IMG/VR virus record: IMGVR_UViG_3300028895_000122
Reading direction: 5' to 3' (one strand)
DNA: 64,000 nucleotides
DNA from: a virus
A model generated the notes under the pieces. The model worked only from the letters and a program-made list of their open reading frames with translations, was not told the DNA's origin and searched no databases. This document shows positions 4,130-56,295 of this stretch, in pieces (positions within the stretch are counted from its first letter, which is position 1; every line of letters begins with the position of its first letter). The position numbers and the translations under genes are program-made.

Positions 4130-5101
4130 TTAGATTACTTTGGATGGATCCGTAATAACCTGTGCTAATTCTTGACCACCACGCACTGATGTTAATTCGC
4201 CTGGTACCTTAACTTCAAACCAAGCAACATTGTCGTCTGGATAATTAACTTGATTAAGTAATTCAAAATCAAGTTTTTCTAATAATACCTTTAATAATCT
4301 ACCAGGTGTATATGTGTTCATCATATTTTCTGCATTGCGTACACCAGCAGTATAATCGCAATCATTATATGTAAACACAATAATTCCACCAGGCTTTAGA
4401 TATCTTTTTAGTTCTATTAGATAATCTTCGATAGCTTCAAGTGGCATATAGTTGAAATAATCATAAAGAACAATTAGACCAAGTTGATTCTCTGGCACAT
4501 TATGTACCTTATGATCACGTGTTTCTTCTATATTAAGATATCTAATTCTTTTCTGAAACTCAGGAGTCCATAGTTGTTTAACTTCATCAAACAATGACAT
4601 ATGAGTATCACCAATATACAACGGAGTACATGTTATCAATGGATCAACAAATTCTCCAGATTCTGGTCTAATAAATAATGCTGATCGTTTCCAATCAGCA
4701 TGAGTCTCGAGCCGGCCTATAAAGTGTTCTTTAACCTTGTCTCGTTTAATACATGGAAAGTTTTGATATCGTTCTTTAACATACTCGTGAGTATCATGCT
4801 CTTTAGCAGTATCGTACCACTCGTAACTTTGTTGAATTAATGGTTTTTCGAGTTCGTAAATAATGTCAGACATATCACTTTTATATTGTTCTAACATTTT
4901 ATCAAACTCATTGAGGTGTTGAGTTATTTTGGCTCCCATACCAACCATATCTGTTTGGTCACAAGCTAACCCAATATCTTGTGCTGATACATCACCTAAA
5001 ATTTTAGATAATTCAGTATTAACATATTGTGTTAACTCATTGACGTGCCATTGCTCAACTGCTGTACGATAACTTACTAAATCACTTAATTTCATTTTCA
5101 A
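4130..5101 (-). CDS. hypothetical protein, possible degenerate class-I methyltransferase-like fold
   Basis: ATGA overlap with the polymerase C-fragment. A C-terminal LKPGGIIVFTYNDCD resembles a post-motif MTase segment. No GxGxG motif I was found. Confidence 0.35.
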   Translation of the reverse strand: MKMKLSDLVSYRTAVEQWHVNELTQYVNTELSKILGDVSAQDIGLACDQTDMVGMGAKITQHLNEFDKMLEQYKSDMSDIIYELEKPLIQQSYEWYDTAKEHDTHEYVKERYQNFPCIKRDKVKEHFIGRLETHADWKRSALFIRPESGEFVDPLITCTPLYIGDTHMSLFDEVKQLWTPEFQKRIRYLNIEETRDHKVHNVPENQLGLIVLYDYFNYMPLEAIEDYLIELKRYLKPGGIIVFTYNDCDYTAGVRNAENMMNTYTPGRLLKVLLEKLDFELLNQVNYPDDNVAWFEVKVPGELTSVRGGQELAQVITDPSKVI

Positions 5102-6084
5102 AACTCGAATAAACTTTCAAATGTATTGCTAGTATCAGTTGCTGCTGCCAAATCCCATTCTAGTACACCTAATAGATTGTCAACCTTCTGATCAATGATT
5201 GTACTTTCCATTAAGTTATCATCAAACGGCAACTCTTTATACCACTCGGGTAAGTGTGCTTCATCTGTTGGATAACCGATGCTAGTCCATCCTAACGGAT
5301 TTTGTTTTAATTTACATACAATGGTTTTCATACCATCTACAATTTGCATGGTATAATTATCATTATTCATTTTGCGTAAAGTATTCCAATTTAATGCTGC
5401 TCGTACATGCCCGGGCATGTTAGCTTTACCTTGCGCTTTCTCCATATTACCGTATTTGGTTAAGTTGTTAACACGTTTTGGTGTTCCTTTTTCCCAACTA
5501 GGCTTTTCGTGGAATTCATTCTTAAATTCTTTAATTTCTTCGATTAATTCTTCTCTAGTTGAACCTGTTAGTAGACTATTTAGAATATTGCTCAAAAAGT
5601 CTTGTACTACCTTTGGCGTGTCGGAGCGTTTAAGGTCTAAGCCCATTGCTTTTACTTTGCCTGGCTTACCATCTACATCTTTGCGTTCGCCTTCGTCATC
5701 AACCACCATAATAGCATATCGCTTTTTCGTAATAAAAAGTCCACTACTGCCAACCACTTCTCGTCCACACGCAATAATTTCACCGTACGATTGTGGACAA
5801 TGAAATGCCCTCTTAGCAAACGCAGGAAAGGAGTCATTGACTTGTTGCCCAAGCTCGTCGTATAACGCGATCGCAACATCAGTGTTCCATTCTTGATCTC
5901 CTCTCTCAACTGCCTCCTTGACAACCGGCCAAGCAGAGAAATAAGCCGAGTCAGTGTTATGTACAAGCGATCCGTTTGCAAAAAAGAACGGATCCTGGTC
6001 AGCCATTGACACATCATAAACATACTCCTCTGTTGTATCTAACTTTTCTACGGATTTAACTCGTTGTCTTTTTAATTCAATCAT
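5098..6084 (-). CDS. 43: DNA polymerase (family B, gp43) C-terminal fragment carrying a C-intein
   Basis: It begins MIELKRQRVKSVEKLDTTEEYVYDVSMADQDPFFFANGSLVHN (intein blocks F/G ending HN), then TDSAYF, which completes YGD|TDS motif C. A 285-aa C-extein follows. The protein ends NTFESLFEF, a clamp-binding-like tail. Confidence 0.85.
   Translation of the reverse strand: MIELKRQRVKSVEKLDTTEEYVYDVSMADQDPFFFANGSLVHNTDSAYFSAWPVVKEAVERGDQEWNTDVAIALYDELGQQVNDSFPAFAKRAFHCPQSYGEIIACGREVVGSSGLFITKKRYAIMVVDDEGERKDVDGKPGKVKAMGLDLKRSDTPKVVQDFLSNILNSLLTGSTREELIEEIKEFKNEFHEKPSWEKGTPKRVNNLTKYGNMEKAQGKANMPGHVRAALNWNTLRKMNNDNYTMQIVDGMKTIVCKLKQNPLGWTSIGYPTDEAHLPEWYKELPFDDNLMESTIIDQKVDNLLGVLEWDLAAATDTSNTFESLFEF
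5956..6084 (-). other. split-intein C-fragment (43 aa) at the N-terminus of the polymerase C-fragment
   Basis: VYDVSM...NGSLVHN immediately precedes the +1 Thr of TDS. Confidence 0.7.
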
Positions 6085-7986: not shown

Positions 7987-8135
7987 ATGCGAATTAAAGA
8001 AGTCACAAAAAAGGTTGTTAAAGATGACGCAGACTATAACAATGATGTTATGTCTGGCCATCAAAAGCCTATTCCCGAACTTACACCTGCTCAAGTCAAA
8101 AAAGCAAAAGCCCTCAAAAAGATTAAGAATCTATA
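7987..8135 (+). CDS. possible small Lys-rich ORF (49 aa), opposite strand
   Basis: ATG..TAG open frame MRIKEVTKKVVKDDADYNNDVMSGHQKPIPELTPAQVKKAKALKKIKNL in the gap between the HEG-like gene and the polymerase N-fragment. It overlaps the polymerase stop and has no clear SD. Confidence 0.15.
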
Positions 8136-10315
8136 GAGATAATTAAGTCATCATCCTGCAATTCTGTAGGTTTAACTTCTATTGTAAATCCGTCTCTATC
8201 AACTATTAAACTATGATCCTCTGTAACGGTTATAGAACTACCATCTTCCATTGTGACCTTGTATAGTTGTTTGGATGTTTTATGACGCATCACATAGTTG
8301 ATCGCTCCAAATACAGCCTCATCTTCATGAGCATTATAACCAAGCACCTTTAGATCATGTTGTGCTTCTGTGGGTATGGCATATTCTTTACCGCCATCTT
8401 GCTCTACCTTGTATTGAATCTGATTGTATAAATCTTCTATGGATATGTTGCCTTTGTTGGTGTTTAATGTAGTATCGCCTGTAACTGAGTCGCCGTATAT
8501 GATGCATTCACCAACATGATCATATTCTCCTGTTAAACATTGATTAACATAAGCGTCCATGTGTTTAGCAATTGCTCGCCCTGTTAACGTTGTGCTTTGT
8601 CCTATCCTAGGGTCAAAAAATCTACAATGTGGGTTTAGGATAGCACCATATAAAGAGTTAAGGTTAATCTTTTTAACGAGTTGTCGTTTATCCCAGAAAG
8701 CAATTTCTTCTTTATCGCTTGCTGTTTTTTTCTTTGCTTGTAATTCTTTACGTTCGGCATACCAACGTTCTAGTAACCCTGGAACAACACCTTTCTTTTC
8801 GTATGTAAAGATGGTACCATTTGCACTTATACACCAATTGGTATTCTCGTTAAATATATGGTCATGTAACTCTTTTGCAGTATGTACGCTTTCTTCGCCG
8901 TTAACCCAATCGACAGTAATTTCTGTATCTGTTCTGCGATCCATAACTGCTGTATATTCCAATGTACCAAACAATCCTTCCCAGGCTGCTGCAAACGAAG
9001 CACCTACATATTTCTTACCATTTCTAAACGTCGGCTCTTGTTTCTTTTTAATGTAGTTGTTGGTCATTATAGGACGTAGTTGTCCTACAATAGTTTCATT
9101 AGCCATGTTCAATGCACGAATAACAGATGGATACAGTGAGTTCAAGTCAACCGACCCAATCCATTTATGTACACCTTTTTTAGGGTATGCTACATAAGCA
9201 CCTGCTGCTTGTGTATCTTCTTTGTCGTGGCGTTTACGATCTGGTACTACCATTCCGCGTTCATGTGCTTCGTTGATGATGGCTTGCTCTGTTACCGCCA
9301 CCGCGCCCATTGTTGTAGGAAGCAATACAGTATTAGCATGAGCTAGTTCGTTTGCTAAATCAAGGAACTTGAGTTTCTCATCCAGTTTAGCAAGTAACGC
9401 AACGTCCTGCCTGTTATAGTCAATAAACGTGTAAAAGTCTTGGTTGTATAGTTGGTCAAGTGTGCCTTCATATTCTACCTTACGCTCGCCAAGTTCATAT
9501 TCACCAATTGCATCTAAGCTATAAGAATGCATTTCGTGATATGTATATTTTCTGTACAGTTGCATATAATCCATATGAACCCTACCAACTGTATCATATG
9601 TAATATGTTCTGCACCAAACCGTTCAAATGTACGTTTCTTAGGTAACATACCCCACAAACATAATCTACGAGTGTCGTCTTTACTTAATACTCGTGTAAT
9701 ACGATTTACTGTGTATGGTATATCAAAGCCTTCGCTGTTCCAGCCGCTATACACGTCGGCGTCTTCGATTATATCCAAAAAGGTTAATAACATATCACGT
9801 TCGTGTTCGAAGATAAATGTATTAGGAAACTCTTTACACATTTCTTGTGCTTCTTCGACTGATAATGTTTTTGGCGGCACCGCCAATGTAATAAGACTTT
9901 CCATCCAATCTAAATATACTGTGATAGCAGTAATCTTATTAAACGGATCGTCTGTTGGTGCAAAACCTTTTTCTTGGTGGAAGTCCACCTCGATATCAAA
10001 AAACGCTGTTTGTAGTTTGGGTGAGTCAACATCTTTATAGTTTGTTTCTATACACCTAAAGATAGGATTAATATCAGATTCAAACAATTGTTGACCTGAA
10101 TGCATTTTAATTTCTTTTTGGAACTCTTTGCCAGTTCTACATGAAAACTTCGATACTGGTGTTCCATAAAGACTTATGTATTTCCCTTTTGCTGATGGGT
10201 AATAAAATACATAGTCGGCAGGATATTCTTTGAATAATCTCTGCCCATCTTTTGATCTTTCTACAATTTTAATACGATCATGTTCACGATCGTGTATAGC
10301 GTCAACATAACTCAT
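8123..10315 (-). CDS. 43: DNA polymerase (family B, gp43) N-terminal fragment carrying an N-intein
   Basis: FFDIEV (Exo I), DLNSLYPS (motif A) and KINLNSLYG (motif B) are present. The extein ends ECIIYGD. A 121-aa SVTGDTTL...VTEDHSLIV... tail follows, then stop. Confidence 0.85.
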   Translation of the reverse strand: MSYVDAIHDREHDRIKIVERSKDGQRLFKEYPADYVFYYPSAKGKYISLYGTPVSKFSCRTGKEFQKEIKMHSGQQLFESDINPIFRCIETNYKDVDSPKLQTAFFDIEVDFHQEKGFAPTDDPFNKITAITVYLDWMESLITLAVPPKTLSVEEAQEMCKEFPNTFIFEHERDMLLTFLDIIEDADVYSGWNSEGFDIPYTVNRITRVLSKDDTRRLCLWGMLPKKRTFERFGAEHITYDTVGRVHMDYMQLYRKYTYHEMHSYSLDAIGEYELGERKVEYEGTLDQLYNQDFYTFIDYNRQDVALLAKLDEKLKFLDLANELAHANTVLLPTTMGAVAVTEQAIINEAHERGMVVPDRKRHDKEDTQAAGAYVAYPKKGVHKWIGSVDLNSLYPSVIRALNMANETIVGQLRPIMTNNYIKKKQEPTFRNGKKYVGASFAAAWEGLFGTLEYTAVMDRRTDTEITVDWVNGEESVHTAKELHDHIFNENTNWCISANGTIFTYEKKGVVPGLLERWYAERKELQAKKKTASDKEEIAFWDKRQLVKKINLNSLYGAILNPHCRFFDPRIGQSTTLTGRAIAKHMDAYVNQCLTGEYDHVGECIIYGDSVTGDTTLNTNKGNISIEDLYNQIQYKVEQDGGKEYAIPTEAQHDLKVLGYNAHEDEAVFGAINYVMRHKTSKQLYKVTMEDGSSITVTEDHSLIVDRDGFTIEVKPTELQDDDLIISIDS
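8126..8488 (-). other. split-intein N-fragment (121 aa) at the C-terminus of the polymerase N-fragment
   Basis: Block A SVTGDTTL follows YGD directly. Block B is TxxH (SSITVTEDHSLIV). Confidence 0.7.
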
Positions 10316-10572
10316 TATTGAGTTCTGCCCACCGTTTCAAGAATTGTTTCAAGCAAATCATAATCTTCCTGTGCTTGATGGAAGTTTGATTTATATGCTG
10401 TATTAATTGCTTTCTTTAATACTGCTGGTTTAACATCCATTTCTTCTGCAATTGCTTTAATGGTGTCAGTAAGGCCGCCACGTAATACTTCGATTTCTCC
10501 AAGTACACCGCAACCCTCATTTACAAGGTGTGTAAGTTTTGCTTTTTCTTCTGAATTGAAAGTTTTAGACAT
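10315..10572 (-). CDS. hypothetical protein
   Basis: First gene downstream of promoter P2. SD TAGGAGAAT. Confidence 0.4.
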   Translation of the reverse strand: MSKTFNSEEKAKLTHLVNEGCGVLGEIEVLRGGLTDTIKAIAEEMDVKPAVLKKAINTAYKSNFHQAQEDYDLLETILETVGRTQ

Positions 10573-10598
10573 GCTATTCTCCTATAATCTAAAGTATA

Positions 10599-10627
10599 AT
10601 TATAGTTGAATAGCTTGGGTATGTCAA
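10599..10627 (-). promoter_or_regulatory. sigma70-type early promoter P2 (TTGACA-N17-TATAAT)
   Basis: Minus strand reads TTGACA tacccaagctattcaac TATAAT, then tatactttagattaTAGGAGAATagcATG. Confidence 0.6.
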
Positions 10628-10628
10628 T

Positions 10629-10892
10629 TTATTTTAGAGGTGTTTGCTCGATTTGGTCTAATCGATTTAAGATATTTTGGATAGTTTCGTCTTGACTATC
10701 TAACTGATGTTGCATAGAAGTAATATCTTGTTCGTCGTCTGATTGTTCATCGTGGTGTAAGTTAGCTAATGCTTCTACATCAGTATCAGCGTGAGCATAC
10801 TTAGCACGAGCCTTTTTGATTGTTCTCGCTGCGTCAGGATTTCGGATAGTTAAGTTGCCTTCGTCTTCGTTTAGGAATTCAAACGATTTCAT
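10629..10892 (-). CDS. hypothetical small protein, paralog family B
   Basis: RTIKKARAKYAHADTDVEAL matches RKGRAKYAYAKSDLEAF of the adjacent gene. Confidence 0.4.
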   Translation of the reverse strand: MKSFEFLNEDEGNLTIRNPDAARTIKKARAKYAHADTDVEALANLHHDEQSDDEQDITSMQHQLDSQDETIQNILNRLDQIEQTPLK

Positions 10893-38627: not shown

Positions 38628-38628
38628 A

Positions 38629-38805: not shown

Positions 38806-38826
38806 ATTATTTTTTTCCTTATATTA

Positions 38827-39108
38827 TTACCACCAAGCCATAGCTCGGCCTAATCCTACGATATTTATTATTGTAAATATCTTATTCAAAGTAAGTGGCA
38901 TAATTAATTGTCTACGATAAAACGCAATGGTTCCGGAAATACTACCTACTAAAAATAAAGGATAAGCATAACGTAAATCTGGATCACCTGCTACTATTGC
39001 AACATAAACACTTGCAACGACAGTAAACACCAAGCTAACAGTTTCTAAAACAAAAGCAAGTTTATCACTATGATAACTTGATGTAATAAAATGTTTTACA
39101 GATTCCAT
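38827..39108 (-). CDS. small membrane protein
   Basis: Three hydrophobic helices. Confidence 0.35.
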   Translation of the reverse strand: MESVKHFITSSYHSDKLAFVLETVSLVFTVVASVYVAIVAGDPDLRYAYPLFLVGSISGTIAFYRRQLIMPLTLNKIFTIINIVGLGRAMAWW

Positions 39109-39344
39109 TAGTGCATAGTCGCAGTAGGTCGTAAATCAACACCTGTTAGCTCAGCATAATCATCGAAGAATTCGTCATCAAATGCGATAGCACATCCTTC
39201 ATATGCAGCAACAGTTTCGTCTGGGAGTTGCATGAGTCTTAGTAGAGCCGCCATATCAACATCCTCTACTAAGTGTGACTCATACAATATTCCCATGATC
39301 TCTAACAATGTATTACGAACATTATCCGTTAGAGTATCTGTCAT
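39108..39344 (-). CDS. hypothetical small acidic protein
   Basis: Packed ORF. Confidence 0.35.
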   Translation of the reverse strand: MTDTLTDNVRNTLLEIMGILYESHLVEDVDMAALLRLMQLPDETVAAYEGCAIAFDDEFFDDYAELTGVDLRPTATMH

Positions 39345-39733
39345 GCTTTAGACAGTTCTTTCTCAATAAAAGCCGCTACTTTCGGATCTGTCTCTTTTCC
39401 AGTTTTAACCGCTGTATCAATGTTACCACTGATAGTTACTTTAGTTTCTGCACGTTTAGCCATCTTAGACTTTTCTGCAATTTTATGTGCGAGAATTTCT
39501 TTCTGGTCATCTGTAAGACCTTCTTTATTATTATAGAAATACTCTGCAGCATCGAGTTTGGTCATACCTTCGTCGAGCTCAATCAAATCAATGTCGGTGC
39601 AACCTGCTTTGTCAAGAATTTTAATCCTTGCTACGAGATCGTTCGCCCAACGAACTTTAATAGTTCCGTCAGCGTTAATAGCAGTACCAACAACAGTGAA
39701 TGTTTTTTCAGTCATATTATTTCTCCGGGACAA
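39341..39733 (-). CDS. hypothetical protein
   Basis: Packed ORF. Confidence 0.4.
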   Translation of the reverse strand: MSRRNNMTEKTFTVVGTAINADGTIKVRWANDLVARIKILDKAGCTDIDLIELDEGMTKLDAAEYFYNNKEGLTDDQKEILAHKIAEKSKMAKRAETKVTISGNIDTAVKTGKETDPKVAAFIEKELSKA

Positions 39734-40502
39734 AGTCCCATCTGTTTACATTATAAAATTTAAAGTTTGGGAATCCATTTAAGGATGCCATTGAAAAATA
39801 ACCAGTGATAGTTATTTCATTATTCCTTTGTTCTAGGTAATGGTTGAACAAAGGTAATAATTCGTTTTTAAGATCAAACATCATACGATAGGTCTCTTTA
39901 GTCTGATCGTCACGGAACCAATATTCCCATTGTTTGATTCTTTTAGTATTTCTGTATGCTTTATCAACAAAGGCGAGTTTTTGTTCACCTTCGAACCAAC
40001 CTAAACCTAATTTAGGTGGATTAATTTCTTCTGCGCCAGCTGCTATAGATTCAAGTTTCATATCGTATGCATAAAACTCTTGTATCTTACAAAGAATTTT
40101 AATATGATCTTGATCTACTTCGTTAACTTGATCGTTGAGTAATGTGTATAAGTGTTTGCGAAACTTTGATACTCTGCCTTCTTTTATTTTACGCATCATA
40201 AGTTTATTTGTATAGTATCTGCGAATCTCAGTTGCTTTTTTGAAATGCTCTTTTTGTGGAGCATTCATATTTGAAACTTCGGGTTGCTTACTCGAAAAAT
40301 GTGATTGATCAAAATCTGTTAGGAACGCTACCGCAGTATTTGTATCCTTTGAATTAGCTAACATAACAGCTAACACATCTACTTCAGAACAAAGTTTCGG
40401 CCATACTGTATGAGCATCTGCATCGTCGATACTCTTAAAAAATTGATCAGCAGTCTTTAGATCAAACGTTCCCTTATTTGGGTTTTCTTTATAAAATAAC
40501 AT
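39717..40502 (-). CDS. hypothetical protein
   Basis: Packed ORF. Confidence 0.4.
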   Translation of the reverse strand: MLFYKENPNKGTFDLKTADQFFKSIDDADAHTVWPKLCSEVDVLAVMLANSKDTNTAVAFLTDFDQSHFSSKQPEVSNMNAPQKEHFKKATEIRRYYTNKLMMRKIKEGRVSKFRKHLYTLLNDQVNEVDQDHIKILCKIQEFYAYDMKLESIAAGAEEINPPKLGLGWFEGEQKLAFVDKAYRNTKRIKQWEYWFRDDQTKETYRMMFDLKNELLPLFNHYLEQRNNEITITGYFSMASLNGFPNFKFYNVNRWDFVPEK

Positions 40503-40510
40503 TATAATTA

Positions 40511-40897
40511 TTATACTGGATCAGTTTGGTTGTTGTCAACTGGTTGTTTAAGTTTCTTCATAATTATTTGTTCTTCGACATACTTCTTAAACGTAGCCCT
40601 GTGACCATCCGGATCTTCACACCAATATTCGATGTGTTCGTAACTACCCCATGCCTGTGGTGGCATAACATTCATCACCCAATCCATAATGCCCCACATT
40701 CTTTGAGCATTGGCTGTGTCTGCTGTTTTAACAGCCCGAAACATATCACCTGCTAGGCATGCTTCTAGGAAGCCACCAGGTTTAATACCATCAACAACAT
40801 AAAGCTCTAATGCCTTCTGTGAATGGTCAGGAATTGATTGACCAATTTGCATGGCCTTTTCGCCCATGTCAAAACAAATATATTTGTTAGCTGCCAT
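40511..40897 (-). CDS. hypothetical protein
   Basis: Trimmed to the ATG at 40897 (MAANKYICF...). The track start at 40924 is a TTG. Confidence 0.35.
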   Translation of the reverse strand: MAANKYICFDMGEKAMQIGQSIPDHSQKALELYVVDGIKPGGFLEACLAGDMFRAVKTADTANAQRMWGIMDWVMNVMPPQAWGSYEHIEYWCEDPDGHRATFKKYVEEQIIMKKLKQPVDNNQTDPV

Positions 40898-41022
40898 TAT
40901 CTTGTAATCGAAATTAATGCACAAACAAAAAACCCAAGAATAACACCAAGTGATAATCCTTGGTAATATCTATCTAGGTTTACAAACCATCTAAAAAATC
41001 TATCCATTAAATTACGTTTCAT
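40897..41022 (-). CDS. small membrane peptide (41 aa), missed by cutoff
   Basis: MKRNLMDRFFRWFVNLDRYYQGLSLGVILGFFVCALISITR. Its stop overlaps the next ATG. Confidence 0.25.
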   Translation of the reverse strand: MKRNLMDRFFRWFVNLDRYYQGLSLGVILGFFVCALISITR

Positions 41023-41024
41023 AT

Positions 41025-41237
41025 CTAGTCCTGAAATCTCAGCCAATGTGTGAATACTACAATAAACGTTCTTGTATCTTGAAAATGCTCATACCCGTCG
41101 TGCGATGGTTTATCAAATAACCAATAACCAAAAATAGTAATTAATTCAGTTATTGCAATAAACAGTATTATAAACAATGAAATTGGTAAGAGCAAGAGTG
41201 CAATTAAAAACCTTATCAATCTTCTTAGGTTATTCAT
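41025..41237 (-). CDS. small membrane protein
   Basis: Two hydrophobic helices. Confidence 0.35.
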   Translation of the reverse strand: MNNLRRLIRFLIALLLLPISLFIILFIAITELITIFGYWLFDKPSHDGYEHFQDTRTFIVVFTHWLRFQD

Positions 41238-41238
41238 A

Positions 41239-41436
41239 TTAACCTACTGCCATAGTTTTATTATACACTTCTTTAAGAATGGTTGTTAACTCTTTAATCT
41301 GTGCATGTTGTTCAGTTACAATATCTTCGACCCTGTTGAGACGGATTTGTAAATTACGATTTTGATTTTGAAGTTTGATCGCTAGATCAAATGCTGGGTT
41401 ACCAGTTTCGAGTTCTTTTGTCATTTTCCGTCCCAT
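41239..41436 (-). CDS. hypothetical small coiled-coil protein
   Basis: Packed ORF. Confidence 0.35.
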   Translation of the reverse strand: MGRKMTKELETGNPAFDLAIKLQNQNRNLQIRLNRVEDIVTEQHAQIKELTTILKEVYNKTMAVG

Positions 41437-42128
41437 CCTTTTAATACAGCCATTGTCAATAATGCAGTATGATCACTATTTGGCATTGTGAAAGTTTCTT
41501 GTATTGTGTCAAACTTAAATTCTCTAGACTTGTCATCTAAGTTATCACCAGGTACAGCCCAAACATTATGGTTTGTCCAACGTGTAATTCGACCAATACC
41601 TAAACGCTTGCGGGGTAATACGCCTACAACCCAATCACCCCTTTGCAGTTCCTGTTGATATTTGTTAACAGGATTTTTAACTTCTTTCTTTTTGTCTGCA
41701 TGTGATTTTACATTACGGACGTACTTTAAGTTACCGTATTCAGGATCCAACGGGTCCATAAAATCAACATACGATTTTTGAATGCGACCTTTCTTTTTCT
41801 TGCCTTTGTTGTCAATTGATTCGTAAATTAAAGTGGCACTATATTCGGAAATTTGTCCTTCGACTTTAGCCCACCGTTCATCTTGTACGTCGAGTTCCAT
41901 ATCTACAATCTTAGCAACAGTACCTTTGGTTGCAGTTGATTTAATTCTAATAAACTGGTCTGGAGGTACAATAAATTCCTCACCAGTTAGATAAAGATAT
42001 GTTTTATCTTCGGGTTGTCCCTTCCAGTTTTTTTCTTGAATAGTTGTTTTGTCAATACCATTACAATCTAGAAGTAGTTGTTTAAAACGACTAGACTGAA
42101 TTGCATAGTTAGTCATATTAGCAGCCAT
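41421..42128 (-). CDS. hypothetical protein
   Basis: Packed ORF immediately downstream of the GGDEF gene. Confidence 0.4.
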   Translation of the reverse strand: MAANMTNYAIQSSRFKQLLLDCNGIDKTTIQEKNWKGQPEDKTYLYLTGEEFIVPPDQFIRIKSTATKGTVAKIVDMELDVQDERWAKVEGQISEYSATLIYESIDNKGKKKKGRIQKSYVDFMDPLDPEYGNLKYVRNVKSHADKKKEVKNPVNKYQQELQRGDWVVGVLPRKRLGIGRITRWTNHNVWAVPGDNLDDKSREFKFDTIQETFTMPNSDHTALLTMAVLKGWDGK

Positions 42129-42132
42129 GATG

Positions 42133-42969
42133 TCACCTTAGGTGTTGGGTTTCTTTAACTATAAAATTTTTGTCTTTATACATGCGCTGGTCAGCTAAGT
42201 GGATTATATCATCAATATCACTAGCTTCTAAACTTGTTGCATAGCCCATACTACAAGAAATTTGTTGCGGTCCTGCATCTGTAAAAATAGGTTTATTAAT
42301 TGCATCATAAATCTTATCCATGATCATGTTAATAACTTTGGTACTAATTGTTTTATTAATTAAAATAACAAATTCATCACCACCGTAACGACATACAATA
42401 TCGCTATCGCGAAGTAAGTGCTGCAATCGTTTTGCTACGACAGCCAGGACTTGATCACCTGCAGAATGACCACCAGGACCATCATTGACTGCTTTAAACT
42501 TGTTTAAGTCAATAAAGATTAATGAAAAATGATCAACTATAAACGATGCTTCGTTAAAAAATGCACGTCTAGTTAATGTGCCTGTTAGCGAATCAAAATT
42601 AATTTCATCATGGTAATCATCAAATCGAGCCACAGCATGTTCATCATCTAGTTTAAAAACATCAATGGCCAAACGAATCGTTTCCATGTTGCGATTTTTT
42701 GCTAGTATTACCCGTCTATCACTTAGCGTGTATCTATCCTCAGCTGTTGATCTGTCCATAAATTTATGCATCATATCAGCATGTTTTAATGCTGGGTTCT
42801 CGATTAAAATGTCTAAATCTTTGCCAATGAGCTCGTTTGGTTTATACCCAAATACATGAGCACCATACTCATTTATTGTAACAATTTTATGCTCTTTATT
42901 AAGCATAAGCATTCCAGAGCCGCACATATCAAGCATCTTTAAGAGAACTTCCGTTGTTGGTGTATTCAT
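42133..42969 (-). CDS. PAS-GGDEF diguanylate cyclase with intact A-site and RxxD I-site
   Basis: DSLTGTLTRRAF...FIDLNKFKAVNDGPGGHSAGDQVL...LRDSDIVCRYGGDEFVIL...LADQRMYKDK. RDSD lies five residues before GGDEF (the I-site). The N-terminal ~110 aa are PAS-like. Confidence 0.8.
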   Translation of the reverse strand: MNTPTTEVLLKMLDMCGSGMLMLNKEHKIVTINEYGAHVFGYKPNELIGKDLDILIENPALKHADMMHKFMDRSTAEDRYTLSDRRVILAKNRNMETIRLAIDVFKLDDEHAVARFDDYHDEINFDSLTGTLTRRAFFNEASFIVDHFSLIFIDLNKFKAVNDGPGGHSAGDQVLAVVAKRLQHLLRDSDIVCRYGGDEFVILINKTISTKVINMIMDKIYDAINKPIFTDAGPQQISCSMGYATSLEASDIDDIIHLADQRMYKDKNFIVKETQHLR

Positions 42970-43295
42970 TGATCTTCCTTTGGTGGGTTAATATGAATTA
43001 TATCTATTTCTTCATCGTCGTCGAGGTCAATGTGTTCATACGCTTCGAGCATAATAAGTTGCTCAGACAACTCGTTAATTAAATCATCGGAAACATCGGA
43101 TTCATAATATTCAACGATATCTGGATCTTTAATTTCGTCAATTTTAAATTCTGGTTTTTTCTTTTTGCCAGTTAAATCTTTGATTTTGTCTTGAATGCTT
43201 TCTCGCAGAGTATCATCGTTATCATATAAACTTGCATAACGATTACTATTTTTCTTTTCTGCTTTTTTAAACATTCCAAACAACCAATTAAACAT
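42966..43295 (-). CDS. hypothetical acidic protein
   Basis: Packed ORF. Confidence 0.35.
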   Translation of the reverse strand: MFNWLFGMFKKAEKKNSNRYASLYDNDDTLRESIQDKIKDLTGKKKKPEFKIDEIKDPDIVEYYESDVSDDLINELSEQLIMLEAYEHIDLDDDEEIDIIHINPPKEDQ

Positions 43296-43470
43296 TACTC
43301 TTCCTGTATTACATCAATGATACTTAGTGTAAAACTTGCACCGTCGACTCTGTCACGTGCTGCCTCAGAGAGATTTTCCTCTCCGTGTGCTGCTGCTTCT
43401 TCTGCTGAATCCGCTTCAACATGAACATACAAAGGAAATTCAACAAGTGCTTCTACTAGGTACTTTGCCA
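43295..43470 (-). CDS. hypothetical small protein
   Basis: ATG (MAKYLVEA...) with GAGGAA SD. Confidence 0.3.
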
Positions 43471-43510
43471 TATTTATATTCCTCAATTAAGTGTAGCAAC
43501 AATTCTGCTA

Positions 43511-43702
43511 TTAGTCAACATGTTTCTTATTCATTTCGTCAATGGCTTTTTTGTAACCATCTTCAAAACCTTTTCGGTATGACATTCTTGACGCTAACCA
43601 ATCTCTTAAATCTTCTTGGCATTTCTTTACACCGGCAAGAAAACCTTTTTCATACTCAGTCGTCATGTACTTCCAAAAAGAAAGTAGACATGTAAAATAC
43701 AA
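43511..43702 (-). CDS. hypothetical small protein
   Basis: Packed ORF. Confidence 0.3.
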   Translation of the reverse strand: MYFTCLLSFWKYMTTEYEKGFLAGVKKCQEDLRDWLASRMSYRKGFEDGYKKAIDEMNKKHVD

Positions 43703-43705
43703 ATT

Positions 43706-43927
43706 TCATTTTATCCACTCCCAAGAGTCGTCGAGTTCGCGTTCATAAATTTGGTCAATTGTTTTATGTTCCCAATCTAGTTGGGCACGAATTAAGTCAC
43801 CCAATGAAGGTGGACCTAACGGTTCTTCAGTTAATGCAGCTTCTAATCTTTCACGCTCGCCCATCCAGGCTTCGTAATCAAGATAGTCCTGCATTGGGCT
43901 CTCCTGGTTCATGTCTATTGTAAACAT
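43706..43927 (-). CDS. hypothetical small protein (start uncertain)
   Basis: Overlaps the 3' end of 43878..44111. An internal start is likely. Confidence 0.3.
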   Translation of the reverse strand: MFTIDMNQESPMQDYLDYEAWMGERERLEAALTEEPLGPPSLGDLIRAQLDWEHKTIDQIYERELDDSWEWIK

Positions 43928-44111
43928 AATTTGTCCACCTTACCAACCATTTACGATCCTCAAGTAAGTCTAACACCACTATCTCAGTGTTAACAAACCT
44001 TTTCTGCCATTCTGTAAAAAACTCAAGTCTATTACCATTAAACTCTACCACTGTGGTGTATATATAAGTTTTCTCTATGGCGTAAGGATCAAGTTTAATA
44101 TCTCGTTTCAT
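43878..44111 (-). CDS. hypothetical small protein
   Basis: Packed ORF. Confidence 0.3.
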   Translation of the reverse strand: MKRDIKLDPYAIEKTYIYTTVVEFNGNRLEFFTEWQKRFVNTEIVVLDLLEDRKWLVRWTNYVYNRHEPGEPNAGLS

Positions 44112-44302
44112 TAGTCCAAATATAAAACGTGTGTCGCTTCAGGAAAGCCAATTGATTCAGCTTCTTCCTCTTCTTCAATTTGACGAACCAGCTCGTCAAG
44201 TTGGACCGGCTCACCAGCCATATTTGAGTATGCAACAATAACAGCATCATCCGGAATTGCGTTAACAAGTTCCAAAAGATCTTGTTTAGTAATTGTATTC
44301 AT
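44111..44302 (-). CDS. hypothetical small acidic protein
   Basis: Packed ORF. Confidence 0.3.
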   Translation of the reverse strand: MNTITKQDLLELVNAIPDDAVIVAYSNMAGEPVQLDELVRQIEEEEEAESIGFPEATHVLYLD

Positions 44303-44532
44303 TACGATGTTCCTTTCCAGAAATTTAATACATCTTCCTCGGAAGTATTCTCGAGTACGGTTAGAACACTTTGTCGTAGAACACTTTGTCGGACTTGTTC
44401 GTATTGCTCGTTTGAAATAGTTAAATTACCACCTTGCATAACTTTAATCGAACTCAACAATACAATATCGATAATATTTTTTTCGCGATCACTCAAAATC
44501 ATCATCATCCTCGTACATGTTACCAAACACAA
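44302..44532 (-). CDS. hypothetical small protein
   Basis: Packed ORF. Confidence 0.3.
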   Translation of the reverse strand: MCLVTCTRMMMILSDREKNIIDIVLLSSIKVMQGGNLTISNEQYEQVRQSVLRQSVLTVLENTSEEDVLNFWKGTS

Positions 44533-44677
44533 ATGCGATATCGTTTTGTTTAGCCATTTCAGTTACATCAGCTTCGCTCAGCCAACCAAGACACATATCA
44601 GCAATCTGACGTGAATCAAGCATACCTTCATCCATAAGTTCCATAATGCGATTGGTTGTTTTTCTTGCGTTAGACAT
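44489..44677 (-). CDS. hypothetical small acidic protein
   Basis: Packed ORF. Confidence 0.3.
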   Translation of the reverse strand: MSNARKTTNRIMELMDEGMLDSRQIADMCLGWLSEADVTEMAKQNDIAFVFGNMYEDDDDFE

Positions 44678-44859
44678 TATGCATCTCCTAAATCGATATT
44701 CAGTTTATCTTTCAGCAGGTATTTGAGTTCATCGGCAGCATCTTCACGACCATAGTCAGCTCCACTGTCCCATTCAGGGTCGGATGAATATGGCATTGCT
44801 TGCGGAATTCGCATGTTGGCAATAAATTCTTTTAACAGTTTAATTTCTTTTTTAGTCAT
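44677..44859 (-). CDS. hypothetical small protein
   Basis: Packed ORF. Confidence 0.3.
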   Translation of the reverse strand: MTKKEIKLLKEFIANMRIPQAMPYSSDPEWDSGADYGREDAADELKYLLKDKLNIDLGDA

Positions 44860-45383
44860 TACGCTGCCTCCTGAAAGTAATCATCCGGAAGGTCCAATAC
44901 ATAACGAAGTTCATCATAACCGCGTTCAACATCTTCGGCTTCCATGATCCATTTAATAGCAGTTTCACGATTACCTGCACCCATAGCAATGGTTTCCTGA
45001 ACACGTTGTTCAAACTTCTCAACATTGCGGGCTTGCTGTTTGGCTTCTGCTTCACGCTCAAGCTCTGCTGAACGAGTAAGTGACTCAAGCTCTGCTTCGA
45101 GCTCATCATCGGACATTGCATTCAACGCACCCCAGTTTGGTTTGTAACCATAGACTTCACGGGTAATTTCAAACACCTCTGAAACAAGAGTGTGATGCTC
45201 ATAATCAGCAACACTACGAACACCGTAGGATTCCCAGTGATCCAAATCTGTGGTAGCATAACCACCCCAACGATGATTAGGATCTTCGGCAACCCACGCT
45301 TCCATTTCGGCCTTCTTAGATTCAAGAAGTTCTTTAAGGGCTAACTGTTCGGCAGAGTAATTCATTATGATCTCCTTAAACAA
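44859..45383 (-). CDS. hypothetical acidic protein
   Basis: Packed ORF. The 44852..45121 and 45122..45325 ORFs in other frames are taken as shadows. Confidence 0.4.
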   Translation of the reverse strand: MFKEIIMNYSAEQLALKELLESKKAEMEAWVAEDPNHRWGGYATTDLDHWESYGVRSVADYEHHTLVSEVFEITREVYGYKPNWGALNAMSDDELEAELESLTRSAELEREAEAKQQARNVEKFEQRVQETIAMGAGNRETAIKWIMEAEDVERGYDELRYVLDLPDDYFQEAA

Positions 45384-45579
45384 AAGAAGGTGCTTTTTTG
45401 TACATTGTTGGAGCGCCAGGATGGCTGCGGCTCATATCAATCTTGTGTACAACACCAGCGGCAATCAGTTCATTCAACGCATTCATTCCAGTGCTGATAT
45501 CATCGACACCGCGGATTGCTGCAAAAGCATTAATTGGATACACCCGACCGGACAGATTTTTGAGAATTTGCTCTTTCAC
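45376..45579 (-). CDS. hypothetical small protein (GTG start)
   Basis: First gene after promoter P4. AAGGA SD 8 nt before the GTG. Confidence 0.35.
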   Translation of the reverse strand: MKEQILKNLSGRVYPINAFAAIRGVDDISTGMNALNELIAAGVVHKIDMSRSHPGAPTMYKKAPSFV

Positions 45580-45610
45580 TTTGTAGATCCTTTTTCCTAA
45601 CTATGTGCAT

Positions 45611-45639
45611 ATTATAGGATATTTGAGTCAAAAGGTCAA
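45611..45639 (-). promoter_or_regulatory. sigma70-type early promoter P4 (TTGACC-N17-TATAAT) within conserved cassette
   Basis: Minus strand reads AAAAAGGTTGACC ttttgactcaaatatcc TATAAT ATGCACATAGTTAGGA. Confidence 0.6.
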
Positions 45640-45750
45640 CCTTTTTCTGCTATTTTTTGCATTTATTTTTGCAATAAAATCAATAACTTAGCAGATTTTA
45701 CAAAAAAAATATGGATTTGGGGTGAATTTTTCTGGGATTTCCCCATGAAA

Positions 45751-46122
45751 TTAGTAGTCTAGTTGGTAAAATTCTAGCTCTAGTCCTTTCTTTATCCACT
45801 GTTCAATGAACTCAGTGCCAACGTCACAGCTTACATAATCGTTACCTTGCATACCCTGTTCGCTGTATGTAACATCATCACCAATTAGACCCAAAAAGTT
45901 CAATTCGGCTCGCAACTCGTTCATGAATGTTTTATCAGTGTAAATAAGTCCATCTTCGTTGATATTCCAAGAACTAGTATCAAATTCGATCTGTAACTCA
46001 CCCCACATCTTACCATCTGCATCTTTGGTTGCATCCAGTTCGAGCTCGGTTGTCTTAACTGATTTAACAGAACTTGACCAGAGTCCATCGCCACCTGTTT
46101 TAATTGAACGATCAAATCTCAT
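45751..46122 (-). CDS. hypothetical protein
   Basis: Packed ORF. Confidence 0.4.
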   Translation of the reverse strand: MRFDRSIKTGGDGLWSSSVKSVKTTELELDATKDADGKMWGELQIEFDTSSWNINEDGLIYTDKTFMNELRAELNFLGLIGDDVTYSEQGMQGNDYVSCDVGTEFIEQWIKKGLELEFYQLDY

Positions 46123-46125
46123 AAT

Positions 46126-46551
46126 TTACTCCACTTCACACAGGTAAGCATAAGCCCTGTGATATTTCTCAAGGCGTTTAAAGTCTTTCTCGCGCAAACC
46201 TTTCATGCGAGTAATATCGCTGTTATGTCTTAGGTCTGCTTTCTTAATAGCACGAGCAATGTGATTTAACGAAACTCGTTCAATATAATCATCGTATGGT
46301 TCGTGATCAGCATGAGTGAGTAATTTAATGATCGTAACAGTATGCTCTTTAAATCCTTCTGATATTAACTGTTCTGCCGTCCATTCCGTGTCTTCAATGA
46401 GATCATGTAACACCGCCGCGATCATTGCTTCTATGCCAAACGATTTAACTTCGTGCATAACGTGTAAACAATGCAGGATATAAGGCTGACCGCCTTTATC
46501 TTTCTTATCTGCAAAAGCTTCTGATGCAATTGCAATAGCTTTACCTAACAT
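46126..46551 (-). CDS. HD-domain small alarmone hydrolase (SpoT/Mesh1-like (p)ppGpp hydrolase) candidate
   Basis: GGQPYILHCLHVMHEV...AMIAAVLHDLIEDTEWTAEQLISEGFKEHTVTIIKLLT matches the RelA/SpoT HD-domain pattern GEPYI.HPL.VA...AALLHDV(I)EDT...FG..VA.LV.GVTK. Confidence 0.65.
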   Translation of the reverse strand: MLGKAIAIASEAFADKKDKGGQPYILHCLHVMHEVKSFGIEAMIAAVLHDLIEDTEWTAEQLISEGFKEHTVTIIKLLTHADHEPYDDYIERVSLNHIARAIKKADLRHNSDITRMKGLREKDFKRLEKYHRAYAYLCEVE

Positions 46552-46580
46552 TTCAACTCCTTTTAGTTACTATATTTCAT

Positions 46581-46609
46581 AGTATAGGTGATTTTGGAGA
46601 AATTGTCAA
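46581..46609 (-). promoter_or_regulatory. sigma70-type promoter P5 (TTGACA-N17-TATACT)
   Basis: Minus strand reads TTGACA atttctccaaaatcacc TATACT, then ...AAAAGGAGttgaaATG for the HD gene. The -35 overlaps the upstream stop codon. Confidence 0.5.
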
Positions 46610-52988: not shown

Positions 52989-53253
52989 ATTCCCATAATA
53001 CTGCATTGCAATGATTATGAACTGCACCTATTGTCATGCCTGTAACATGATCGTGGTGTAAGTGTACTGGCCATTTGAAAAACCCATCTGGATAATATTC
53101 AGGGTGAACTTTCTTTTTTGCTATCTTTAAAGCAGGCATTCCATCTAGAGGTGCGCCACAATAATAGCAAAGACCTTTTTGGTGACGTACATACTCTTCC
53201 CTGAGTGTACGTCTCTCCTTTGGTTTAAGTTTATCATAGTTTTGTGGTTCCAT
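52975..53253 (-). CDS. Endonuclease VII-family (His-Me finger/HNH) protein
   Basis: CYYCGAPL...VHLHHDHVTGMTIGAVHNHCNAV parallels T4 endo VII CLICQREL...NHLDHDHELNG...RGLLCNLCNAAEG. Start taken at the ATG overlapping the PseT stop. Confidence 0.55.
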   Translation of the reverse strand: MEPQNYDKLKPKERRTLREEYVRHQKGLCYYCGAPLDGMPALKIAKKKVHPEYYPDGFFKWPVHLHHDHVTGMTIGAVHNHCNAVLWEYEGE

Positions 53254-54119
53254 TAGAACGCTCCGTAATTTACCTGGAACACCGTAAATCCCAAATGTCG
53301 CCACATATGAACCACTTGGTCACGATCGTCAAATACTCCAATCACATTATAACGACCTTTGATGTGATTGTTATAAATTTCTTCTTTAATAAGAGTATCT
53401 TTACGATTGTCACCTGCAGGACGAATATAAAACTCATCAAACGGAACACCATGCTTTGTTAGCCAATCTGCAGTCTCATCTTTACATGATCCATCACGTC
53501 CTGACACTACAACCAATTTGGTTGATGGTCCTGCTACTTTTGATACCGCGTAGATAACATCTGGGTTAGGAAGATCTGTTCCGACTTTGTCCCATTCGAA
53601 TGGTCCACGTCCGTTCATTTGTGCAACAGTACCATCAACATCAACAATAATACAATCTTCCAAATTGCTATCATACTCTGGTGTTGGCCACCAATGTTCA
53701 CGATGACGATCAAACATACCCATAATAACTTTAGCACCTACAGGATGTTCGCGTTTAGCATCGCGGTCCAGACATACACCAAGATGTACATCAGTAAACA
53801 GTTCTTCACGATAACCAATACCACGATCGTCAGCAATGCCTTTCCAGTTTTTGTTGCGATCTGGATTCAGGTTAGTGTCAGATACGATAACAGATTTACC
53901 GTGCGACAGAGCTTCTTGAGCCATAGCCATTGCTGTAACAGTTACAGTAGACTCGCGCCATTTGCTGAACTTGTTATAACGATCACGGCCCTGCATTGCT
54001 AGACGAATGTCATCACGATTTACATTAATATAATCTGGGTTTTGTTTAATGAACTCGTTAGTCCAAGTAGTTTTACCTGAAGCTGGCAGTCCAACTGTTA
54101 GTACGATTTCTTGTGTCAT
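53253..54119 (-). CDS. pseT: polynucleotide 5'-kinase/3'-phosphatase (T4 PseT orthologue)
   Basis: Collinear with T4 Pnk: VLTVGLPASGKTTWTNEFIKQNPDYINVNRDD, VIVSDTNLNPDRN, IIVDVDGTVAQMNGRGPF (HAD DxDGT), RKDTLIKEEIY, DDRDQVVHMWRHLGF. Confidence 0.85.
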   Translation of the reverse strand: MTQEIVLTVGLPASGKTTWTNEFIKQNPDYINVNRDDIRLAMQGRDRYNKFSKWRESTVTVTAMAMAQEALSHGKSVIVSDTNLNPDRNKNWKGIADDRGIGYREELFTDVHLGVCLDRDAKREHPVGAKVIMGMFDRHREHWWPTPEYDSNLEDCIIVDVDGTVAQMNGRGPFEWDKVGTDLPNPDVIYAVSKVAGPSTKLVVVSGRDGSCKDETADWLTKHGVPFDEFYIRPAGDNRKDTLIKEEIYNNHIKGRYNVIGVFDDRDQVVHMWRHLGFTVFQVNYGAF

Positions 54120-55041: not shown

Positions 55042-55243
55042 CTACCCACCTTAAGGGTTTCCAATAATACGGAAACCCCTCGTGAAGTTCCACAACGGCA
55101 TCAACTTCGGTATATTCTTCCTCCCATGATGCACGTTGTAACCATTTACGTTTGCCGTCGAGGGTCATTGGCAGAAATAGAAACTTATTACGTTGTATCC
55201 GCTTATCCCCGATCATTGGTTTTCTAAAAATAATCATACCCAT
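55034..55243 (-). CDS. hypothetical small protein
   Basis: Packed ORF. Confidence 0.35.
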   Translation of the reverse strand: MGMIIFRKPMIGDKRIQRNKFLFLPMTLDGKRKWLQRASWEEEYTEVDAVVELHEGFPYYWKPLRWVDD

Positions 55244-56295
55244 TCCAAACGTTTGATCTGTTTCAACAAAAATGCTTTCCAGTCTGGTTCTTCATTCTTG
55301 CTGTAATACATCATAGCAAGTGAGAACTCATAACCTTCTAATTCATTCTGACCTTTAATAGCAAACTCTTTACGGTCTAAATGCTTGTTAGCATTATAAT
55401 ACTCTGTAACAGAATTTACAATTAAGTTGGCTTTATGAATTACCTTATGCTGTAACTCTTGCATTTCTTTCAACACTTCAGGCTGATCAGCAATTAACGC
55501 AAAAACATCATCAGCTTCATCTTTCAACACTAATTCAATAAATGCATTAGGCTGGTTAACAAAGTCTTTAGCACGGTGACGTTCCAAATACCATGCACAC
55601 TTTTCTTTCCACCAGTTACCTTGACGATCAATTACAACATAACCTTCGACGTTAGTTAAAGTATCAAGTTCATCCAATTTTATAAGGCTTTCAAAACCAG
55701 TAAAGTATTCTTTTGGAATTGAACCTGGGTACATATACATACCAGTATCACGCTGACGAGCATTTAGCACAATCAAACGTGGTTCTGGATAGTGAAGCAC
55801 AATACGGAACTTTGGATCTGGATGAACCAATTCCATGTTTACAGTATAACCATCACGTTCGCACCACTTAACAAAATCAAACAAATCGTTGTCATTGTAC
55901 AAGATATCCATTGCCATGTTTGCATAATCAGAATGAATAGAAGTTTTAGACTTTAAACGCAAATCACCTTCGGAATCAACATAAGAGCTGATTAAAGAAC
56001 CATCTGCTTTGTTCATTACATACTGTGGATCTTCATATTCGATAAAGTCTACTTCACCTTTGTTAAAAAACTTATGCATCGGACGAGAAGCAATACGCAA
56101 TGGATTACCTTCGCAGTCAATCTGAAACATGATACCACGTGACTCTAATGCATCTGGCAGTAACCATGAGTCTTTATCAGTGAAGTGATAAGAGAATATG
56201 CGATAGCAGTCCTTACCAATTTCCTGATCAGAGTGGTAAAATGGAGTGTCGTCGTTTAACGACAAGTTCATTAAGTTGTTATATAATTCTTTCAT
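55234..56295 (-). CDS. rnlA: RNA ligase 1 (T4 RnlA orthologue)
   Basis: N-terminus MKELYNNLMNLS...YRIFSYHF...SWLLPDALESRGIMF...LRIASRPMHKFFN is near-collinear with T4 Rnl1 MQELFNNLMEL...YRIFSYNY...DWLLPDALECRGIMF...VRIASRPMEKFFN. VMNKADGSL is the KxDG nucleotidyl-lysine motif. Confidence 0.85.
   Translation of the reverse strand: MKELYNNLMNLSLNDDTPFYHSDQEIGKDCYRIFSYHFTDKDSWLLPDALESRGIMFQIDCEGNPLRIASRPMHKFFNKGEVDFIEYEDPQYVMNKADGSLISSYVDSEGDLRLKSKTSIHSDYANMAMDILYNDNDLFDFVKWCERDGYTVNMELVHPDPKFRIVLHYPEPRLIVLNARQRDTGMYMYPGSIPKEYFTGFESLIKLDELDTLTNVEGYVVIDRQGNWWKEKCAWYLERHRAKDFVNQPNAFIELVLKDEADDVFALIADQPEVLKEMQELQHKVIHKANLIVNSVTEYYNANKHLDRKEFAIKGQNELEGYEFSLAMMYYSKNEEPDWKAFLLKQIKRLEWV

Follow-up and report, generated by a model that had tools for sequence, protein, structure and literature searches.

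The DNA considered here is a stretch of 64,000 nucleotides (nt) from a virus, the IMG/VR record IMGVR_UViG_3300028895_000122, referred to below at its full length as the window. Its minus strand carries a complete gene for a protein of 278 amino acids (aa), in which a PAS domain precedes the GGDEF domain of diguanylate cyclases, enzymes that make the second messenger cyclic diguanylate (c-di-GMP). A first-pass annotation had described this gene as a phage-encoded PAS-GGDEF cyclase with intact catalytic (A-site) and inhibitory (I-site) motifs. The locus was as described, with the strand now supplied; the entry in the window's list of open reading frames (ORFs) has exactly the limits given in Table 1 and runs from ATG to TGA.

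The cyclase gene is closely fitted to its surroundings. Its start is overlapped by 4 nt by the upstream ORF (42966..43295), and the downstream ORF begins 4 nt past its stop. The GC content of 0.35, and of 0.265 at third codon positions (GC3), equals that of other phage genes. The gene has the composition of ameliorated DNA and forms a translationally packed part of a phage operon. It had been called phage-encoded, and the phage genes around it together with the matching GC and GC3 speak for this over bacterial contamination. A recent host-derived insertion or an assembly chimera was also considered and discarded, given the phage-like composition, the presence of the identical protein on independent assemblies, and the phage-only clade described below.

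Table 1. Features of the window and of related loci. Positions are those of the window unless a locus on another contig (L number) is named.
Feature	Position	Strand	Remarks
PAS-GGDEF gene, complete	42133..42969	minus	278 aa plus TGA stop; Pfam GGDEF and PAS_9; AlphaFold2 model with predicted local distance difference test (pLDDT) 86.9
Shine-Dalgarno AGGAAG	42974..42979	minus	5 nt 5' of ATG, within 3' end of ORF 42966..43295
PAS domain	residues ~8-118, 42616..42948	minus	DSSP on AlphaFold2 models, Foldseek, phmmer
His63 codon, candidate proximal haem ligand	42781..42783	minus	F-alpha helix KHADMMHKFM; phmmer alignment to FixL 1d06
PAS-GGDEF linker (DYHDE)	residues 119-123, 42601..42615	minus	before DxLT motif D126-S-L-T129
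GGDEF (diguanylate cyclase) domain	residues 124-268, 42166..42600	minus	PF00990, PleD residue map, Foldseek TM1788
Primary I-site RDSD	residues 187-190, 42400..42411	minus	R187 and D190 invariant in clade; align with PleD R359/D362
A-site GGDEF	residues 196-200, 42370..42384	minus	R194-Y195 just before; invariant in 14/14 clade members
Family-B DNA polymerase, two genes	8123..10315 and 5098..6084	minus	~2 kb of small ORFs between; also L027 1890..4082
ClpA-like ATPase, 765 aa	17391..19688	minus	phrog_4871, E=1e-234
HD_4 protein, 141 aa	46126..46551	minus	PF13328, 34 bits (cut-off 27.2); HDLIEDT motif
Pilin-like ORF, 119 aa	49342..49701	minus	type IV pilin N-terminus KG/; N_methyl PF07963, E=7.7e-9
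SPFH/Band-7 protein, 544 aa	49776..51410	minus	PF01145; phrog_11908
PNKP	53253..54119		
T4 Rnl1	55234..56295		
Rnl1 - GGDEF - Metallophos (L021/L022)	L021 2668..5344		
Rnl1 - GGDEF - PNKP	L023 2127..4995		
Rnl1 - GGDEF - Metallophos - 353 aa - PNKP	L006 8844..13934		PAS-GGDEF homologue at 9965..10741
GT2 - 299 aa - 81 aa - GGDEF - Metallophos - PNKP (L002/L004)	L002 10001..13703		
EAL protein, 260-274 aa	L019 1042..1866; L020 225..1007	minus	also in L024-L026
Membrane GT2, 435-443 aa	L002 7455..8786; L004 3001..4332; L018 10001..11308		
HD_4 protein in relatives	L019 5501..5989; L020 5331..5759		
ClpP-like protease in relatives	L019 9527..10111		
Receiver-GGDEF protein	L007 1615..2613		GGDEF E=1.6e-39
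Sugar-nucleotide and preQ0 genes	L027 13607..20940		left of the window

The GGDEF domain is complete, in keeping with the first-pass annotation, and its recognition goes far beyond chance: Pfam PF00990 matches residues 124-268 at E=1.8e-32 and 112.8 bits (cut-off 23.8), and NCBIfam TIGR00254 scores 103.7 bits (cut-off 37.4). The region reads LLRDSDIVCRYGGDEFVIL. The motif RDSD had been placed five residues ahead of the A-site in RYGGDEF, which is exact as read from the sequence, with IVCRY (residues 191-195) standing between RDSD and GGDEF. In the AlphaFold2 model of the whole protein, a five-stranded PAS fold is followed by a GGDEF fold, and pLDDT exceeds 90 across most of residues 140-270. 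GGDEF and PAS-GGDEF structures are the top PDB matches of this model in Foldseek, among them the TM1788 GGDEF domain (template modelling score 0.80-0.84, root-mean-square deviation 2.6-2.7 Å) and RbdA, a PAS-GGDEF-EAL protein (E=4e-17).

A residue map was drawn by alignment to the GGDEF domain of PleD, the sequence of which was verified in PDB entries 1w25 and 2wb4 and the residue roles of which follow published work (PMC7288161; PMC12943098). D154 aligns with PleD D327 (metal binding), K159 with K332 (transition state), N162 and D172 with N335 and D344 (guanine binding), and K267 with K442 (phosphate binding); L175 corresponds to L347 and R194 to R366, and the A-site GGDEF stands where PleD has GGEEF. 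At the primary I-site, R187xxD190 matches R359xxD362, and K219 takes the position of the basic I-site residue R390. In this alignment every catalytic residue of PleD is matched except R446. The alignment also bears on the likely product. GGDEF domains of the Hypr type, which make cyclic GMP-AMP (cGAMP), have a serine or threonine at the position of PleD D344 (S348 in GacA; PMC6456294), whereas the window protein and all members of its clade have aspartate. This points to GTP specificity rather than Hypr activity, and a Hypr enzyme was rejected on these grounds.

The closest relatives of the protein form a compact group carried by phages. A word-indexed search returned a twin with 99% identity and then four proteins of 230-273 aa with 37-40% identity, followed by a sharp fall to bacterial PAS-GGDEF proteins. 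An exhaustive HMMER search with a clade profile against 1.84 billion representatives found about nine clusters (50% identity) at 232-402 bits, all of 236-278 aa; the next matches, at 218 bits or less, are large multidomain bacterial proteins. Clade members with readable context are all on phage contigs, including contigs of 250 kb and 344 kb. Across the 14-sequence clade alignment, the residues of the A-site and primary I-site are invariant despite identities of 31-39% to the window protein. This invariance indicates selection on both catalysis and product binding.

A number of departures from PleD weigh against a working, product-inhibited enzyme. The arginine that contacts the beta- and gamma-phosphates in PleD, R446, has no counterpart, with V271 at its position and K272 beside it. 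In the AlphaFold2 model the C-terminus forms one long helix and has no GRN strand of the usual kind; two relatives stop directly past the equivalent of K442. The secondary I-site arginine, PleD R313, falls within a 7-residue deletion. The guanine-binding residues are also separated by a 1-residue insertion, the window protein reading NDGPGGH (residues 162-168, 42466..42486 on the minus strand) in place of the usual NDTxGH. This insertion is confined to the window protein and its 99% twin, P0001, and is absent from the other 12 clade members; the twin further differs at S83G, R85G and F125L. The earlier description of the protein as enzymatically competent is sound for the residues of the A-site and primary I-site and slightly overstated in view of R446, R313 and the guanine loop.

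The missing R446 and the insertion in the guanine pocket would also suit a different protein, one that binds c-di-GMP through its I-site as a sponge, or that is a weak or inactive cyclase, and so lowers or buffers free c-di-GMP. Conservation of RxxD and K219 fits such a role, and phages related to this one have an EAL protein with full catalytic motifs, so lowering c-di-GMP can also serve the phage group. However, all metal-, base- and transition-state residues of the A-site are invariant at the low identities of the clade, a pattern that would be difficult to account for unless catalysis were selected, and short C-termini without GRN are seen in bacterial homologues too. A sponge, or a weak or inactive cyclase, is given only a slim chance. 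A canonical PAS-GGDEF diguanylate cyclase, predicted to be an active enzyme, is the identification we hold with good confidence.

The N-terminal domain had been called PAS-like, and profile scores and fold agree. Pfam PAS_9 gives 29.8 bits (cut-off 27), Pfam PAS 23.3 bits (22.6) and TIGR00229 23.4 bits (22.9); DSSP on the AlphaFold2 model assigns an N-cap helix (6-14), strands at 19-24 and 28-32, helices within 34-72, and strands at 86-91, 97-106 and 111-118. The join to the catalytic domain is unusually short. The segment that runs from the final PAS strands to DxLTG has 23 residues in the phage clade (18 in one member), whereas in 54 bacterial PAS-GGDEF homologues it has 32-46, most often 36. 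Missing from all members of the phage clade are 13 residues of the bacterial linker helix. The bacterial segment contains the helical linker that normally relays the PAS signal, while in the phage proteins about 7 residues lead from the PAS core to the GGDEF domain. With this coiled-coil signalling linker gone, activity is probably set mainly by expression. Within the clade the central helices of the PAS domain vary strongly, and three members do not have them. Taken over the clade, dimerisation is thus a more likely function of the PAS domain than ligand sensing.

Comparison with bacterial PAS-GGDEF cyclases (the FixL-type P0007, P0044 and P0053; TM1788, 4urg; RbdA, 5xgb; a LOV-GGDEF protein, 8c05; and PleD, 1w25) brings out the same two-domain architecture and fold, a common A-site (GGDEF, D154, K159, N162, D172 and K267) and a common primary I-site (RxxD with five residues between it and the A-site, and a basic residue aligned to R390). 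The window protein differs in its PAS-to-DxLT segment, which is 13 residues shorter, in lacking the GRN/R446 element, the last strand and R313, and in being virus-encoded within a separate phage-only clade.

The window protein has the longest PAS domain of the phage clade, and this domain may have kept a function of its own as a haem-based gas sensor. Here a FixL/DosP-type PAS would bind haem through His63, and O2 (or NO or CO) would switch c-di-GMP synthesis; the idea would couple host reprogramming to oxygen availability and refines, rather than opposes, the reading of the protein as a cyclase. A phmmer search of the PAS region against PDB gave only DosP (2e-4) and FixL (3e-3) at E<0.2. Alignment to Sinorhizobium meliloti FixL (1d06, E=0.003) places H63 on H194, K69 on R200 and R86 on R214 (numbering as in PMC10765370). 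The top 11 Foldseek PDB matches of the PAS-only model (pLDDT 82.8) are all haem-PAS domains, including EcDOS (1vb6, E=1.4e-8), and pLDDT is low in the F-alpha helix and FG loop, as expected of an apo haem pocket. In addition, the closest full-length bacterial homologues (P0044, P0053, P0057 and P0007) bear the FixL signature HDGY..Y / R.V.G.RK.G. Against this, the sequence similarity amounts to a weak 21 bits, Y80/T81 stand in place of the distal hydrophobic pair I209/I210 of FixL, and the Foldseek margin is small, with haem-PAS domains at 1e-8 to 7e-7 and other PAS types at 1e-6. Most clade members lack the proximal histidine, and P0005, P0171 and P0174 have lost the F-alpha region entirely, so haem sensing is not what the clade conserves. 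Gas sensing by the window protein is accordingly put forward as a tentative, rather doubtful refinement. DosP also controls c-di-GMP, as the window protein is predicted to do, but its output domain is an EAL phosphodiesterase and that of FixL is a kinase, in contrast to the GGDEF domain here.

The genes of the window are those of a large phage. They include a split family-B DNA polymerase, a clamp loader, a ClpA-like ATPase, T4 Rnl1, PNKP, a gp9/10-like protein and head decoration proteins, as well as long runs of small ORFs in one orientation. Pfam matches of the N-terminal part of the polymerase include Intein_splicing (PF14890), and a split or degenerate intein is possible. Relatives also encode a ClpP-like protease. 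T4-type families are represented by the DNA polymerase (phrog_262), the clamp loader (phrog_168), Rnl1, PNKP and gp9/10_N. The best matches of the DNA polymerase and the ClpA-like ATPase are to the jumbo phages PA5oct, Phosso, Atu_ph07 and SCTP-2, at 39-50% identity, with PA5oct nearest by DNA polymerase (49.6%). A nucleotide search with positions 41000-45000 against GenBank phages gave no similarity. Judged by these genes, the carrier is a T4-related jumbo phage, nearest to PA5oct-like phages and not T4-like (Straboviridae) proper. The first-pass label of a lytic T4-like phage therefore stands for the T4-type replication and RNA-repair module and gives way for the core genes, which are nearest to those of PA5oct-type jumbo phages; the lifestyle may be lytic, and no window ORF of at least 300 aa matches an integrase family.

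In the pilin-like ORF (Table 1) a charged, coiled-coil-like tail takes the place of the pilin globular domain. Its product, possibly a pseudopilin of the phage, may disturb type IV pili or type II secretion of the host. The pilin N-terminus also hints that the host is Gram-negative and has a prepilin peptidase. About 10 kb of DNA to the left of the window was read on ENA contig ERZ27256790 k141_364479 (L027). No c-di-GMP genes are found in this stretch, which carries sugar-nucleotide genes (GT1-like, epimerase/dehydratase, DegT aminotransferase and UDP-glucose dehydrogenase) along with GTP cyclohydrolase I and PTPS/QueD of the preQ0 pathway. The latter two suggest a 7-deazaguanine DNA-modification pathway, which would likewise draw on GTP.

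The position of the cyclase gene differs between this phage and its relatives. In five of six lineages the gene sits within the RNA-repair (Rnl1/PNKP) cluster, and in three its stop overlaps the start of Metallophos, a calcineurin-like phosphoesterase of 253-259 aa (gene orders in Table 1). Phosphatases of the calcineurin-like type are known to take part in RNA repair by jumbo phages (PMC7824862). In the window this arrangement has been lost, with Rnl1 and PNKP nearly adjacent and the cyclase 10 kb off and without a Metallophos neighbor. It lies instead in a block of small ORFs of about 3.6 kb, between the HD_4 gene and a gene for a 235-aa protein (41421..42128), two genes that are adjacent or nearly so in relatives. 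An insertion between genes that otherwise adjoin suggests that the cyclase behaves as a mobile accessory gene. Its neighbors of 235 aa, 109 aa (42966..43295), 261 aa (39717..40502) and 137 aa (40511..40924) match no Pfam, NCBIfam or PHROG family. The 235-aa protein has 48 phage homologues, none annotated, and was rejected as a dedicated partner of the cyclase since the two show no linkage in relatives. The HD_4 protein resembles small alarmone hydrolases of the RelA/SpoT type and is kept in relatives.

This setting raises the prospect of a role in counter-defence or RNA repair, in which the product, c-di-GMP or another nucleotide, would disturb cyclic-nucleotide immune signaling or anticodon-nuclease systems. 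Such a role would explain the place of the gene between or beside Rnl1, Metallophos and PNKP in relatives, including the stop/start overlaps. Jumbo phages are also rich in counter-nucleotide enzymes, calcineurin-like and HD-alarmone phosphodiesterases among them (PMC7824862), and the window has its alarmone-hydrolase-like HD_4 gene. The window cyclase itself, however, is outside the cluster, and a PADLOC scan of the cyclase and three neighbors gave no defence-family match. The canonical guanine-specific pocket and the I-site indicate ordinary c-di-GMP, and the synteny may reflect just a variable accessory slot in the early-gene region. Taken together, a counter-defence function appears highly improbable.

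Relatives of the window phage carry further genes of c-di-GMP metabolism. Their EAL protein has all the catalytic motifs of a phosphodiesterase (EALVRP, SVNVS, ELTE, DDFGTGYSS, KIDK, EGVE and QGYYF), and the 344,483-bp contig IMGVR_UViG_3300032254_000001 (L006) has both the EAL gene and a PAS-GGDEF homologue. Some relatives encode a membrane glycosyltransferase of family 2 (GT2), the best match of which is the poly-beta-1,6-GlcNAc synthase PgaC/IcaA (TIGR03937, E=5e-57, under cut-off), followed by NodC, cellulose synthase and hyaluronan synthase. L002 and L004 have a 443-aa version, encoded two genes upstream of the cyclase.

With PgaCD of Escherichia coli directly activated by c-di-GMP, the proximity of a PgaC/IcaA-like gene allows for the cyclase to serve a phage-encoded effector, such as a polysaccharide synthase that coats the infected cell, in place of host receptors. 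The distribution of the genes argues otherwise: the window has no homologue of the GT2, its 299-aa partner or the 81-aa gene, nor does it contain a PilZ or MshEN motif; the cyclase occurs without the GT2 in L006 and L021-L023, and the GT2 occurs in L018 with no cyclase within 10 kb. A cyclase-GT2 partnership was rejected for the window phage, there being no GT2 homologue in the window and the genes occurring independently, and a phage-encoded effector is considered very unlikely. A broader idea is that the phage lineage, rather than just bearing a strayed gene of a host, runs a c-di-GMP circuit of its own, made up of the linker-less PAS-GGDEF protein (perhaps as an O2- or NO-gated haem sensor), the EAL protein in relatives and a PgaC-like synthase in some. 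We regard this as speculative and unlikely; if true, the virus would control how much second messenger the infected cell contains, in both directions and possibly in response to oxygen.

Phage-borne GGDEF domains are already on record in databases. Annotations include gp350 of Bacillus phage G, a "diguanylate cyclase" of Bacillus phage SP-15, and entries for Microcystis phage MaAM05, Acetobacter phage phiAX1 and some coliphages, and seven PHROG families contain GGDEF (5594, 14602, 9661, 11823, 8342, 26035 and 34213), all labeled "unknown function". These other phage genes are 28-40% identical to the window protein and match it in the GGDEF domain only; none has the short PAS-GGDEF architecture. 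Many of the 84 "phage" GGDEF records are bacterial contigs or prophage fragments. The 240-kb viral contig IMGVR_UViG_3300030108_006260 encodes a GGDEF protein with a response-regulator receiver domain (L007), which suggests that large phages acquired cyclases of more than one architecture. A survey of 224 jumbo phages covers phosphodiesterases of the HD-GYP, alarmone, DHH and calcineurin-like types, and not GGDEF or EAL. No characterized phage-encoded diguanylate cyclase was found in the literature searched.

A precedent for phages acting on this signaling network comes from the YIP peptides of PB1-like Pseudomonas phages, the sole described phage interference with c-di-GMP signaling found in the same literature. 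These peptides raise host c-di-GMP via YfiN, and motility falls and biofilm rises on their expression (De Smet et al. 2020, PMC8085984). They are lytic-phage products that raise host c-di-GMP, as the protein here is predicted to do, but they are small peptides acting on the host enzyme YfiN, whereas the window phage carries a cyclase. The effect of a phage-carried cyclase would thus not depend on a particular host enzyme.

Mobile elements offer a second comparison. The SXT/R391 integrative and conjugative element (ICE) of Vibrio cholerae carries the diguanylate cyclases DgcK and DgcL. By importing a cyclase, this mobile element shifts host c-di-GMP, motility and biofilm, and such elements are integrated and maintained in growing cells. 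Here, by contrast, a jumbo phage with T4-type replication genes is the carrier, and the enzyme would have a single infection cycle in which to act.

The reading that we favor, with moderate confidence, is that a jumbo phage makes a working, product-inhibited diguanylate cyclase in the infected cell and that this enzyme acts on host c-di-GMP signaling. In the proposed mechanism the PAS domain, with hardly any linker between it and the catalytic domain, would pair two subunits, and the paired GGDEF half-sites would condense two GTP to c-di-GMP. Binding of product at the RxxD I-site would cap output and spare the phage's GTP supply, a safety valve on GTP use. Activity would be governed mainly by the timing of gene expression, to which the FixL-like PAS of the window protein may add control by haem and gas. 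The product would then act on host c-di-GMP receptors, with motility and pili switched off, matrix and adhesion increased, or physiology tuned for phage production. One route by which c-di-GMP reaches pili is induction of the type IV pilus inhibitor PlzR (PMC11461919). The first-pass annotation had named motility, biofilm and pili as possible targets, and manipulation of any of these is a reasonable inference by analogy.

The part of this reading that concerns host signaling also has findings set against it. Nothing in the sequence points to a specific target of the cyclase product. Motif and HMM scans of ORFs of at least 40 aa found no PilZ, MshEN, HD-GYP, EAL or second GGDEF in the window, so no c-di-GMP target is visible there. 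A promoter and terminator scan of positions 38000-47000 gave counts no higher than shuffled controls and allows no inference on timing. Finally, the cyclase is patchily distributed even in close relatives, some of which have the EAL phosphodiesterase instead or additionally; the direction in which a change in c-di-GMP would be beneficial is therefore not obvious.

The window protein adds a member to a small clade of jumbo-phage PAS-GGDEF proteins with a shortened linker. The gene is small and its product soluble-looking, which makes the cyclase claim directly testable. The linker-less clade also offers a natural test of how a PAS domain regulates a GGDEF domain. In most bacteria c-di-GMP settles the choice between motile and sessile life, and it governs surface structures that serve as phage receptors. 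With a regulated cyclase of its own, a virus could redirect host behavior in infection and, given an opposing phosphodiesterase in relatives, the change could run either way. Infected cells might be held in place, superinfection that depends on pili or flagella might be blocked, or matrix production might be induced.

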